From: a virus
Direction: 5' to 3' (one strand)
IMG/VR virus record: IMGVR_UViG_3300025132_000021
Span: 1-64,000 of that record
Length of the DNA stretch: 64,000 nucleotides
The stretch's first letter is position 1. Each line of letters opens with the position of its first letter. Below, in pieces: positions 17,168 through 20,588 of the stretch. The notes beneath the pieces are model-generated. The model was not told the origin of the DNA. It saw only the letters and a program-made list of their open reading frames with translations, and ran no database searches. The translations under genes were made by a program, and so were the position numbers.

Positions 17168-17629
17168 ATGTTGGTAGCACTAACAGGCACAATGATTGGA
17201 TTTGGAGCCTTCGGATATTCTATTGTTAAACTTAAAGACCGTCAATGGCGTGAAGCCGCAATCGCTATGGTTGGCGGTGCTGCTGTGCTTTCCATTGTAG
17301 GTTGGAATCTTAATCGTTTGAAGGACGATGCAACGAAAGTTTTCGGTGCAGACTACATGAAGCGTAATGAAGTTGAAAAAGTTCTTGATGAATCTGCTGG
17401 CAAAATTGTCGGTGTAACTTTCATTAAGAAAGATGGTTCAGAGCGCACACTTGTTGGCAGGATTGGCAAGAGATACTCCCCAACGGGAACTGACCCGTTA
17501 GGTGGCAAAGCCGCCCGCCGAGGTCGTGGACTATTCACAATTTATGATATGCAAAAGCAAGCCTTCCGCATGGTAAATATGGATACAGTTATCAGCATTC
17601 GTGCTGGTGGAAAGACCTACCGTGCGTGA
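17168..17629 (+). CDS. Two N-terminal TM helices plus WYL_2/DUF2693-like Sm/SH3 barrel
   Basis: VTFIKKDGSERTLVG...IYDMQKQAFRMVNMDTVISI; FGAD junction. Confidence 0.7.
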   Translation: MLVALTGTMIGFGAFGYSIVKLKDRQWREAAIAMVGGAAVLSIVGWNLNRLKDDATKVFGADYMKRNEVEKVLDESAGKIVGVTFIKKDGSERTLVGRIGKRYSPTGTDPLGGKAARRGRGLFTIYDMQKQAFRMVNMDTVISIRAGGKTYRA

Positions 17630-17633
17630 TAGC

Positions 17634-17837
17634 ATGAGTTTTTACACAAATCCAATAGTTTTCACGGCATTAGCGATTACTTCTTATGGATTTTATCGTT
17701 CAATTAAAATTGGGCTTGCTACTGCTATGGATAAATCAGTAAGTGATAGAGAGTATTGGTTATCTATGCTTCCCGGATATGCTTTAGTTGCCTTTGGTAT
17801 TGGAATCATGGCTTCAATGTATCCTTTTAAGAATTAA
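17634..17837 (+). CDS. Small two-TM membrane protein
   Basis: Two hydrophobic helices. Confidence 0.55.
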   Translation: MSFYTNPIVFTALAITSYGFYRSIKIGLATAMDKSVSDREYWLSMLPGYALVAFGIGIMASMYPFKN

Positions 17838-17853
17838 ACATAGTTGTGATTGA

Positions 17854-18225
17854 ATGTATGATATTTTAGTAGCCAATAATGCTGCCATGGTTGATTACCG
17901 AGGTGACCTTGCACTTACTTTAATGAATATCATGTATGATTATCACGGCAACCGACTTTACAAAAACATTTTTTCAACTAATGACGGTATGCTAAAAGAC
18001 CAAAGTTGGTTAGAAAAATCCCTATTACAAATCCGCTACATTGTTGGTAGCATTGATGGTATGAACGGCATTGGAAGTTTGGATGAATCCGAGTTTATTA
18101 GAAAAGTGATGAGGGAGGGTCTTGATACATTTAACACCATTTTAGTAGTTGAACCTCACGCTTACGAAGATTATGTAAATAACGATTATGTAAAGTATTT
18201 CAAAGACATAATTATCATTAGTTGA
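17854..18225 (+). CDS. Hypothetical protein
   Basis: 123-aa ORF. Confidence 0.55.
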   Translation: MYDILVANNAAMVDYRGDLALTLMNIMYDYHGNRLYKNIFSTNDGMLKDQSWLEKSLLQIRYIVGSIDGMNGIGSLDESEFIRKVMREGLDTFNTILVVEPHAYEDYVNNDYVKYFKDIIIIS

Positions 18226-18226
18226 A

Positions 18227-18703
18227 TTAAACATAGTCTTCAAACGGAAGTGTTGTGTTAAGTTTATACGAAACCACAGTATCTTTACTACGACTAATTA
18301 CCCCTCTTTTAACATACAAATTACAGCAAGCAGATACGCTGGCCGTTGAACACCTGTAAGGAGTAGTTTGTTCAATCCAAACAGATATTTCTCGTGCAGA
18401 ACTTTCACCTAAAATCCTAAGACCTTTGAGAATGTTATATTTAACTTTACTTTTTCTTCCAAACAATCTACCACTTTTTTTCTGACAATCCTTGCTACAC
18501 ATCCAAGCGTATTTCCAATTAGACACTCCATCAATACACATAGTATTGCCGCAGATTAAACACGCCACATCAATTTTACCGTTAGCAGGTTTTATACCCT
18601 TAGCAATCTCATAACAATAACGAGAACATTGTTCCTTAAGAAAGGTAGTTCTTGCACCTTCACGGTTGTAATAACCATCACCACAAACACTACAATTGGG
18701 CAT
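18227..18703 (-). CDS. Cys-rich (CxxC/CSxxC) Zn-binding protein with C-terminal winged HTH
   Basis: CSVC..CSRYC..CLIC..CSKDC plus wHTH; start 18703 is 30 nt after TTTATATC; paralogue of 21077-21547. Confidence 0.7.
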   Translation of the reverse strand: MPNCSVCGDGYYNREGARTTFLKEQCSRYCYEIAKGIKPANGKIDVACLICGNTMCIDGVSNWKYAWMCSKDCQKKSGRLFGRKSKVKYNILKGLRILGESSAREISVWIEQTTPYRCSTASVSACCNLYVKRGVISRSKDTVVSYKLNTTLPFEDYV

Positions 18704-18761
18704 AACCCATATACAACGAATCACTGATATAAAATCTTACATTTATTTAACTTACCAAAAC

Positions 18762-18769
18762 TTTATATG
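18762..18769 (+). promoter_or_regulatory. TATA box for ncRNA
   Basis: TTTATATG 30 nt before 5' hairpin at 18792. Confidence 0.6.
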
Positions 18770-18791
18770 AGTCATTCGTCTTAGGAGAATT

Positions 18792-18997
18792 GTTGGCGGG
18801 GATACCTGCCAATGGAGATGGCTGAATGTCCCTTCGTGGGGGATAAGGCACTGCTCTCGTAGGAACACGATTCCTGCCGTGGACGGCCAAGTGGCATAGA
18901 AGCGAGCCTGTAAATGGGCGGTTAGTAGGTTGGAGTCGTGAACGCAACGGAAACTGCGACGGCTGCATGGAGGTATGTCCAAGTCCTCCTCTCACCC
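18792..18997 (+). ncRNA. tRNA-like structured RNA of about 205 nt with expanded arms
   Basis: GC-rich island; GAGA-TGGCTGA..TAAGGCA D-arm-like, CTGCT/AGTAG stem, GGAGG/CCTCC T-stem followed by TCTCACC; then a T-rich tract. Confidence 0.65.
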
Positions 18998-19032
18998 TTT
19001 ACTTCATATAGGTGCTACTCTTTAGTAGTAGT

Positions 19033-19248
19033 ATGGACTCATTTTGGATAGCACAAATGCAACAGTATGCCAGTAGATATGCACAATTCGTAGAAATCTT
19101 AACTACTAAGGTTCACATGACTACTGAAGATATTTTACCACTTTGGCTTCATCTTAATGAACTTGTTTGTGATTGCGAAGGATGTCGTGAAGAAACAGAT
19201 TGCATAATTCATATTGATTTTGATTTTGATGATGAAGACGAGGATTGA
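19033..19248 (+). CDS. Small acidic Cys-containing protein
   Basis: CDCEGC..C..H; upstream of DP1. Confidence 0.5.
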   Translation: MDSFWIAQMQQYASRYAQFVEILTTKVHMTTEDILPLWLHLNELVCDCEGCREETDCIIHIDFDFDDEDED

Positions 19249-19253
19249 TTACT

Positions 19254-20588
19254 ATGCGAGAAATTAGAGGTTGGAATCCCACCCGCATTCACGAGGAACT
19301 CAAATTAGAGCCTCGTCAAATTGCTGATGCGTGGTCTGCCAAAGCCTCGGATTATGCTTATGAACTTTCCACAGGTGTTTCCGTTGGTGAAACCGACCAA
19401 ACAGGAAAGATGGAAGATATTATCAATTTATTTCAGAATCGTTTAGAGGTTATTGAAAAGATTCTCAAGAATGAACATGGATTTCATAAGTTTGGAGACA
19501 TTCGTGAAGTAGACCGCAACCGAAGAAAGTTTATTCGCCATCAAGTAGCCGTAATTGGTATTGTAACTGATATTAGGCGAAGCCGAAGCGGAGGTCGTAT
19601 CGTAGAATTAGAAGACCGCACAGGCACAATGACAATTTTTATTCGCAAAGATGACCCCGCAGCAGGCACATTAGTTAATGATGATGTTATCGGAGTAGTT
19701 GGTAATTTTGCAGACAAAGGAGATATGTTCTTTGCTAATCGGGTTCAATATCCCGAAGTATTGCCCACACATCAAAATCGTGGAGGTTTAGATTTTGACC
19801 CAGTATCAGTGGCTTTTGCTTCCGACATCCACATGGGTTCTAAAAAGTTTCTGGAAAAAGATTGGGACAAGATGATGAAATGGATGAACTCAACTGATGA
19901 AACAGCCCAGAATATCAAATACTTTGTTTTATCAGGAGATGTAGTAGATGGAGTAGGCGTTTATCCCGGACACGATAGAAACTTGTCTATGAATGATGTT
20001 TATGACCAATACGAGTATTGCGCTCGCAAATTAGATGAATTGCCAGACCACATCACACCAGTAATCCTTCCGGGAAATCACGATGCTGTCCGACCTGCTG
20101 AACCCCAACCTATGCTTGAACCACTAATTCAACAAAGGTTTAATTCCACAGTTCACACAGGCAATCCTGCTCGCATCTATCTAAATCATGGTCAAGAATC
20201 AGACCCATTTGAAATACTAAGTTATCACGGCAAAGGCATTGACGACATGGTTCCAAGAATGGCTCATGTGACTTATGAAGCCCCAGCCGAAGCCATGAAA
20301 GAAATGATGAAGAAACGACATTTGGCTCCAATGTGGGGTGAACGCAACGCTCTAAGTCCCGAAGTAGAAGACCAAATGATTATTCGTGATGCACCAGATT
20401 TATTCGTTACAGGTCATACCCATGCTCATCAAGTTGAGTGGTATCGTGGCACACCCTTAGTAGTATCATCTACTTTCCAAGGCGAAACAGATTTCATGCA
20501 AATGCTGGGTTATCAGCCCAAGAAATCTTTGCTTTCAGTGTATAATTTACAGTCCCGAAGTAGCCGAGTTATCTCTTTTGAGTCCTAA
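19254..20588 (+). CDS. polD1: DNA polymerase D small subunit DP1 (OB fold plus calcineurin-like 3'-5' exonuclease)
   Basis: SDIHMGSKKF, GDVVDGVGVYPG, PGNHDAVRPAEPQP, YHGKGIDD, RHLAP.WG, TGHTH, TFQGETDF. Confidence 0.95.
   Translation: MREIRGWNPTRIHEELKLEPRQIADAWSAKASDYAYELSTGVSVGETDQTGKMEDIINLFQNRLEVIEKILKNEHGFHKFGDIREVDRNRRKFIRHQVAVIGIVTDIRRSRSGGRIVELEDRTGTMTIFIRKDDPAAGTLVNDDVIGVVGNFADKGDMFFANRVQYPEVLPTHQNRGGLDFDPVSVAFASDIHMGSKKFLEKDWDKMMKWMNSTDETAQNIKYFVLSGDVVDGVGVYPGHDRNLSMNDVYDQYEYCARKLDELPDHITPVILPGNHDAVRPAEPQPMLEPLIQQRFNSTVHTGNPARIYLNHGQESDPFEILSYHGKGIDDMVPRMAHVTYEAPAEAMKEMMKKRHLAPMWGERNALSPEVEDQMIIRDAPDLFVTGHTHAHQVEWYRGTPLVVSSTFQGETDFMQMLGYQPKKSLLSVYNLQSRSSRVISFES

Follow-up and report, generated by a model that had tools for sequence, protein, structure and literature searches.

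We analysed a 64-kb window of an IMG/VR virus record of 160,342 bp (~160 kb) that carries inverted terminal repeats (99 bp exact). It encodes a structured RNA, flanked on one side by a divergent ORF and on the other by a co-oriented 71-aa ORF, which lies 33 nt 3' of the RNA and precedes the gene for the PolD small subunit DP1 (Table 1). The RNA region has a G+C content of 0.565, compared with a genome mean of 0.41, and is among the most G+C-rich 200-nt stretches of the genome. Genome annotation places TBP and DP1 genes near the RNA locus, and DP2, PCNA and an archaeal-type primase are encoded elsewhere in the same genome; the host of this virus-like genome is therefore archaeal. From the marine habitat and a DP1 relative named 'Euryarchaeota archaeon' we infer that the host may belong to the Poseidoniales. 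The sequencing runs containing the element are mostly marine. Many related contigs with DP1 exist, reaching up to 179 kb. Terminase_6N has no match in the viral genome. The sole tRNA gene called in the genome is a tRNA-Ala(TGC) at G000:C1:80312-80385, for which CCA is not encoded.

Table 1. Features at the RNA locus, in window coordinates unless a genome position is given.
Feature	Position	Strand	Remarks
Divergent ORF	18227-18733	-	about 158-165 aa; Cys-rich N-part, winged-helix-like C-part; promoter motif at 18733
Archaeal TATA-type promoter of the RNA	18762-18791	+	TATA box start at 18762; the genome's leaderless-promoter class
Whole manA-family ncRNA	18792-18999	+	3' end approximate, inferred from the Rfam match and a pyrimidine run
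P1, 5' hairpin	18792-18813	+	9 bp, from the predicted transcription start; 3 compensatory pairs
P2, 5' strand, acceptor-like	18815-18818	+	paired to 18990-18993 over 4 bp (homologues: 5 bp); A-U to U-A change
D-arm-like core	18819-18850	+	U8 G9 G10 C11 U12 G13 A14 A15 ... A21 A22 G23 G24 C25 A26
D-like stem	18821-18823/18847-18849	+	U12-G23 to U-A change
Hairpin P3b	18829-18843	+	inserted in the D-like arm; replaces the GG D-loop
Loop L3	18834-18838	+	candidate kissing partner of L5; 5/5 Watson-Crick with 18866-18870; G-U kept in homologues
P4 stem and four-way junction P4-P5-P6-P7	18851-18928	+	manA inner domain; replaces the anticodon loop
P4, anticodon-type stem	18851-18855/18924-18928	+	68 nt enclosed
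Loop L5	18866-18870	+	candidate partner of L3
P6 internal loop, unpaired strand	18881-18885	+	candidate partner of L9; invariant
P8, variable-arm-like helix	18934-18964	+	GAAA-containing end loop
P9, T-arm-like	18968-18989	+	U48, G53:C61, U54, A58, U60; 7-nt insert between U54 and A58
T-like stem of P9	18969-18973/18985-18989	+	11-nt loop
Loop L9	18976-18980	+	candidate partner of the P6 internal loop
Separate promoter of the 71-aa ORF	19003-19032	+	ATG at 19033, exactly +30
PolD small subunit DP1	19245-20588
PolD DP2	G000:C1:106624-110190

A divergent member of the manA RNA family

With permissive filters, Rfam returned one strong match at the locus, to manA (RF01745), spanning 18795-18999 and model positions 1-192 with 40.5 bits and an E-value of 4.7e-9. 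The first-pass annotation had thus missed a described family. The match lies below the manA gathering cut-off of 55.2 bits, as do those of its homologues (35.6-41.1 bits); at the gathering threshold nothing is found in the window, and a search of the genome with RF01745 missed the RNA, which is visible with permissive filters only. A covariance model of our subfamily finds six further loci (L536, L372, L546, L537, L518 and L508) at E-values of 9e-14 to 1e-6, each of which scores above the manA cut-off (55.4-77.5 bits). The same model, run with default filters, does not reach the cyanophage-type manA members. Both the P1-P9 architecture with its P4-P5-P6-P7 four-way junction and the conserved manA core letters at the P2/P3 junction and in P9 are present in the window RNA. 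Because of the full-length match and the link through our own model to members above the cut-off, we file the RNA as a divergent manA-family member, though it falls below the curated threshold. It resembles manA (RF01745; PMC2864571; 10.64898/2026.07.01.735769) in P1-P9 order, four-way junction, core letters, marine viral source and a length of about 200 nt. It differs from manA as described in that it belongs to an archaeal host system, has a TATA promoter, scores below the cut-off and has a 4-bp P2; its L5 and L7 are not complementary, its L8 is of the GAAA type, and P8 has no 3' bulge.

We reached the homologues via the divergent ORF. They comprise one allele that is 98.6% identical to the window RNA (L365-L370) and one that is about 75% identical (L364, L377). 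In L378 (202-413) the allele is a mosaic, with a 5' part like that of L364/L377 and a P8 region like that of the window, which suggests recombination inside the RNA gene. A second copy was not found in the parts of the genome searched. A scan of prokaryote genomes gave four matches, none RNA-like on reading, which argues only weakly that cellular genomes lack the RNA. BLAST against cultured phages returned chance 20-mers only, four further scans used patterns of too little stringency and yielded chance matches, and the L001 virus, a 33% fragment, has no match to the RNA. The element has no Rfam match to RNase P RNA, SRP RNA, tmRNA or group I introns.

Twelve phage RNAs (L510, L513, L511, L523, L519, L545, L010, L529, L540, L547, L524 and L535) carry the manA D-arm core with inner domains that are much larger or smaller (up to about 345 nt), and several of them lie in tRNA arrays. 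Judged by such sequences, the family is wider than RF01745. A compact manA variant occurs in marine tailed viruses (L372:1700-1890, L373-L376, L518 and L538; L375 also has a terminase) and is bordered by further non-coding stretches that are conserved and rich in hairpins; TBP, PCNA and archaeal primase were not found for these viruses (L372 group). A phage array in L546 (590-6030) holds more than 25 tRNAs together with a GOLLD RNA and a manA RNA.

A conserved secondary structure

All helices named in the first-pass annotation (5' hairpin, acceptor-like pairing, D-arm, anticodon-type stem, variable arm and T-stem) are present in the sequence. When the window RNA is aligned with four homologues, 98.8% of cells pair on the named structure and 15 pairs are changed on both sides, a set that represents about two alleles or lineages, not five, with the changes coming mostly from one allele split. 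Structures slid along the same alignment are paired at 39-49% and show 0-4 two-sided pair changes. The inner domain contributes three compensatory pairs in P4, four in P5, one in P6b and two in P7. RNAalifold likewise arrives at the manA architecture with its P4-P5-P6-P7 junction. Single-sequence folding gives a modest signal (z -1.87 for the plus strand versus z -0.70 for the minus strand). These findings together confirm that the folded RNA is real and conserved.

The RNA has its own promoter

The genome uses a TATA promoter class in which an ATG lies exactly +30 from the TATA start in 10 of 22 motif matches. Thirty nucleotides from 18762 lies 18792, the first base of hairpin P1, and the same geometry is found in all homologues (n=4), in which the promoter is kept. 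We placed the RNA start at this position because the class sets the start 30 nt from the TATA start. The RNA had earlier been annotated as 18762-19002: a folded RNA is indeed found at 18792 to ~18999, but the first 30 nt (18762-18791) are its TATA promoter. The promoter motif of the downstream 71-aa ORF is also present in relatives without the RNA, where it precedes the orthologous ORF by 30 nt. Our analysis thus shows that the RNA has a promoter of its own, without coupling to that of the downstream gene. A palindrome at 19014-19030, considered as a 3' hairpin of the RNA, was rejected as it belongs to this next promoter of the same class. We also rejected an antisense 82-aa ORF (18747-18995) as a gene, stops interrupting it in three homologues.

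We examined four RNA sequencing runs from four studies, chosen for covering a small share of 17800-20000. Their metatranscriptome contigs cover 18799-18955, 18810-18960, 18792-18970 and 18813-18959 at 98-100% identity, and the rest of 17501-20500, including the flanking genes, is without contig cover except for one 51-nt partial match. The small share was the selection criterion; recurrence of the same segment four times was not selected for. Uncovered flanks in RNA contigs are not proof that the flanking genes are silent. The contigs, which carry no strand, level or true ends, hint that the element accumulates as an abundant discrete RNA but do not prove it; the RNA is probably expressed.

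manA has been classed as a cis-regulatory 5'-UTR element or riboswitch candidate since 2010 (Weinberg et al. 2010, PMC2864571; also Rfam), and the placement of our RNA shortly before the co-oriented 71-aa ORF, itself followed by the gene for the PolD small subunit, would suit a switch for this ORF and DP1. This ORF, however, has its own leaderless-type promoter even in RNA-less relatives, so that the RNA does not occupy the position of a 5'-UTR cis-regulator. The RNA contigs end by 18970, and other manA members are flanked by tRNAs rather than ORFs, often lying flush between tRNA genes as in S-CREM1; at nine loci no more than 11 nt separate the RNA from a tRNA. The separate downstream promoter, the contig ends and the tRNA-flanked members together argue against the 5'-UTR reading of PMC2864571. 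We thus regard a cis-regulatory role as very improbable, and the element is clearly not the 5'-UTR switch suggested by the Rfam label.

A cassette with a divergent ORF

The divergent ORF lies beside the RNA in all close homologues. The two have back-to-back promoters (18704-18791) with an extended TATA motif of 17 nt that is almost the same in both. The rest of the genome has no match of such exactness (the next best has 2 mismatches), and this shared motif is possibly an operator for the winged-helix-like ORF product. In five related genomes (DP1 76-88% identical), RNA and ORF are both absent from the site; the RNA is therefore accessory. Where the cassette is present it has diverged more than DP1 (in L377, 75% identity for the RNA, 70% for the ORF and 89% for DP1). 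In close relatives (L365:5483-6199, L364, L379), a Cu/Zn superoxide dismutase-family gene adjoins the divergent ORF; it is missing there in the window.

The common promoter motif, the joint absence and the stronger divergence would all fit a two-gene mobile cassette in which the RNA, as a regulatory or antitoxin-like molecule, is the partner of the divergent Zn/winged-helix-like protein. The homologues were, however, found via the ORF, which makes the co-occurrence partly a matter of construction; distant ORF homologues have no RNA nearby, and other manA members have no such ORF alongside. The protein model (pLDDT 64.5) gives only weak matches, the best at an E-value of 0.002, and these are to DNA-binding regulators with MecI/Fur/MarR-type domains. 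We consider this partnership improbable.

A class II tRNA core in manA RNAs

In the order of its arms and the lengths of its linkers (2 nt, 1 nt, 1 nt, 0 nt) the window RNA agrees with class II tRNAs, which have a long variable arm. It also has in common with them (Ser, Leu, Tyr; for example phage T4 tRNA-Ser) a 3-bp D-stem with G13.A22 and the core invariants U8, A14, R15:Y48 (here A15:U48), A21, G53:C61, U54, A58 and Y60. Against a class II profile built from 39 roughly registered tRNAs from fetched loci, for which percentages are approximate, the window RNA has the most frequent letter at 19 of 22 positions, for a score of 24.6 bits. On the same profile, the mean for real class II tRNAs is 17.0 bits (sd 6.3), and random sets that keep the pairs do not exceed 17.7 bits (n=200,000). 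The seven T-arm positions alone give a p of about 3e-4.

We then parsed the T-arm region of 158 candidate loci without sequence constraint. In 125 of them the parse gave a T-like hairpin with an acceptor-like strand behind it, and 104 of these are close cyanophage-type copies; the D-arm letters had been part of the search patterns. The parsed members have U48, G53:C61 and Y60 throughout (125/125 each), U54 in 119 and A58 in 123, whereas only one of 300 shuffled controls could be parsed, and none had the T-arm letters. The same core letters stand in Rfam's own manA consensus, and about a dozen distinct lineages agree. These comparisons support a tRNA scaffold that is real and family-wide in manA, and the first-pass description of a tRNA scaffold with expansions in every arm can be extended to the whole manA family. 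The window RNA is shown to have both the manA secondary structure and class II tRNA core letters. In the literature searched, limited to non-subscription papers, we found no link of manA to a tRNA-like fold, and the cryo-EM preprint and its supplement do not contain the word 'tRNA'.

The manA of L508 (3110-3295, plus strand; 77.5 bits) lies behind a sigma-70 promoter and has a 7-bp acceptor stem and GCCA. This apparent intermediate favours descent from tRNA, and the core letters suggest that the manA family descends from a class II tRNA; they could alternatively be shared by convergence on a tRNA-like junction. A second tRNA-shaped element, also CCA-ended, directly follows the manA RNA in L508 (3296-3373) and has no Rfam or ARAGORN call.

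Other tRNA features, precisely those by which the tRNA-handling machinery recognises its substrates, have been lost: G18G19 is replaced by a hairpin, U55C56 by a pairing loop and the anticodon loop by the four-way junction, and the acceptor has 4-5 bp and no CCA. The G18G19/U55C56 elbow is what RNase P, ribosomes and T-boxes read. The window RNA, which unlike class II tRNAs also has an extra 5' hairpin, has neither G18G19 nor a 7-nt TΨC loop, and its 4-bp acceptor-like stem is followed by ACC and then C, in place of a 7-bp stem with a CCA or CCA-ready end. A 7-nt anticodon loop is absent with or without splicing, and the bases at 34-36 vary from one homologue to another and extend into helix P5.

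The first-pass annotation had offered two explanations for such an RNA, a tRNA mimic that would decoy ribosomes, synthetases or anticodon nucleases, or an intron-laden relic. A functional mimic would be cut by RNase P and RNase Z, receive CCA and act as a decoy for a synthetase, a modification enzyme or a tRNA-targeting defence nuclease. The tRNA core letters, the ACC conserved after the acceptor-like stem, the complete acceptor end of L508 and the many members flush between tRNAs would be in keeping with this, and YrlA shows that tRNA-like ncRNA domains can serve as enzyme substrates (PMC4201824). The acceptor stem, however, has 4-5 bp in 116 of 125 members, without CCA, and no triplet is conserved at positions 34-36. 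Since the tRNA elbow and the anticodon loop are missing, ordinary tRNA enzymes are probably not what the RNA decoys, and we consider a mimic of this kind unlikely.

The second explanation, a pre-tRNA laden with introns and spliced to give a working tRNA, or else the decayed remains of such a gene, is largely refuted and has very little probability left. C32 and U33 do follow the anticodon-type stem in all homologues, and permissive bulge-helix-bulge matches exist, but none lies at 37/38, and the recurrent ones are rich in G-U pairs and incompatible with covarying helices. ARAGORN calls no tRNA at the locus, with or without introns at normal threshold, and excision of the inner domain in every register yields no call even when the threshold is relaxed. 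Covariation shows that selection acts on the structure of the inserts themselves, and splicing cannot lengthen an acceptor of 4-5 bp. The T-loop excess of just 4 nt is too short for an archaeal intron.

Two other groups of tRNA-like ncRNAs bear comparison. Phage T4 species 1 RNA (rnaC) is likewise a tRNA-shaped phage ncRNA with an enlarged inner domain, but it keeps a canonical T-loop, lacks the manA D-core and gives no match with the archaeal subfamily model. YrlA and bacterial Y RNAs (PMC4201824) are ncRNAs with a tRNA-like domain that also occur in phages; the window RNA differs from them in having no Rfam Y RNA match, no Ro60 in its genome and no canonical T-loop.

Candidate loop pairing and probable oligomerisation

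manA variants form pentamers, decamers and a 60-mer via L5-L7', L8-L9' and L3-L8' kisses, with interfaces that vary by variant, and the cages were observed in vitro at about 3 mg/mL RNA and 10 mM Mg (10.64898/2026.07.01.735769). L5-L7 complementarity is found in most, not all, solved variants; in the window RNA, these loops share no run of at least 4 pairs. Most of the cyanophage-type manA RNAs tested have the best complement of L9 within L8. In the archaeal subfamily it is the P6 internal-loop strand instead, with 5-6 bp in all three sequences tested (window, L364, L378). L3 is a perfect 5-nt complement of L5, a pairing kept as G-U in the other allele. Two disjoint complements of such length arise in 3.2% of shuffles, and both pairings are post hoc; the window RNA and its four homologues contain no two-sided covariation for either of them. 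We regard L3-L5 and P6 loop-L9 as candidates for rewired kissing contacts. If the core is L-shaped like a tRNA, L9 would sit at its corner, with P6 past the distal end, a geometry that would favour intermolecular pairing. Without the canonical L5-L7 contact, the archaeal variant might not oligomerise.

Discussion

On balance, we lean towards the reading that the window encodes a scaffold RNA of tRNA origin which forms oligomers and works in trans, as a multivalent scaffold or sink. The element is then a stand-alone viral manA ncRNA with its own archaeal promoter, and the conserved U8/A14/A21, G13.A22, A15:U48 and U54.A58 contacts would still fold the central junction, with D-loop, anticodon loop and T-loop swapped for modules that display pairing loops. 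Oligomerisation would most likely occur via these loops, as in the relatives solved by cryo-EM, with L3-L5 and P6 loop-L9 as candidate contacts instead of L5-L7 and L8-L9. The resulting stable ring or cage may, in the course of infection, serve to gather or sequester a protein of the host or the virus.

More tentatively, manA RNAs in general may be tRNA-derived viral RNAs that kept the tRNA core fold while their D-, T- and anticodon loops became interchangeable modules that kiss to build RNA-only rings and cages. On this broader proposal, to which we give rather less credence, the family would have crossed between bacterial and archaeal viruses, and its archaeal version would have been re-paired into a contact network outside the solved ones. 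GOLLD, ROOL and OLE are likewise phage-associated structured RNAs solved as RNA-only complexes (10.1101/2024.12.08.627333), but they are much longer and have unrelated folds.

The manA family and its oligomeric structures were known; in the literature searched we did not find the tRNA core, the stand-alone promoter or the altered loop pairing. The own promoter rules out a 5' UTR for the window copy and favours an RNA that acts in trans. The tRNA core found across the family, with a complete acceptor in one member, would provide an origin for the manA fold that is checkable on the deposited structures, and it points to host enzymes worth testing. An archaeal variant with different loop partners would offer a natural test of the design rules of RNA cages.
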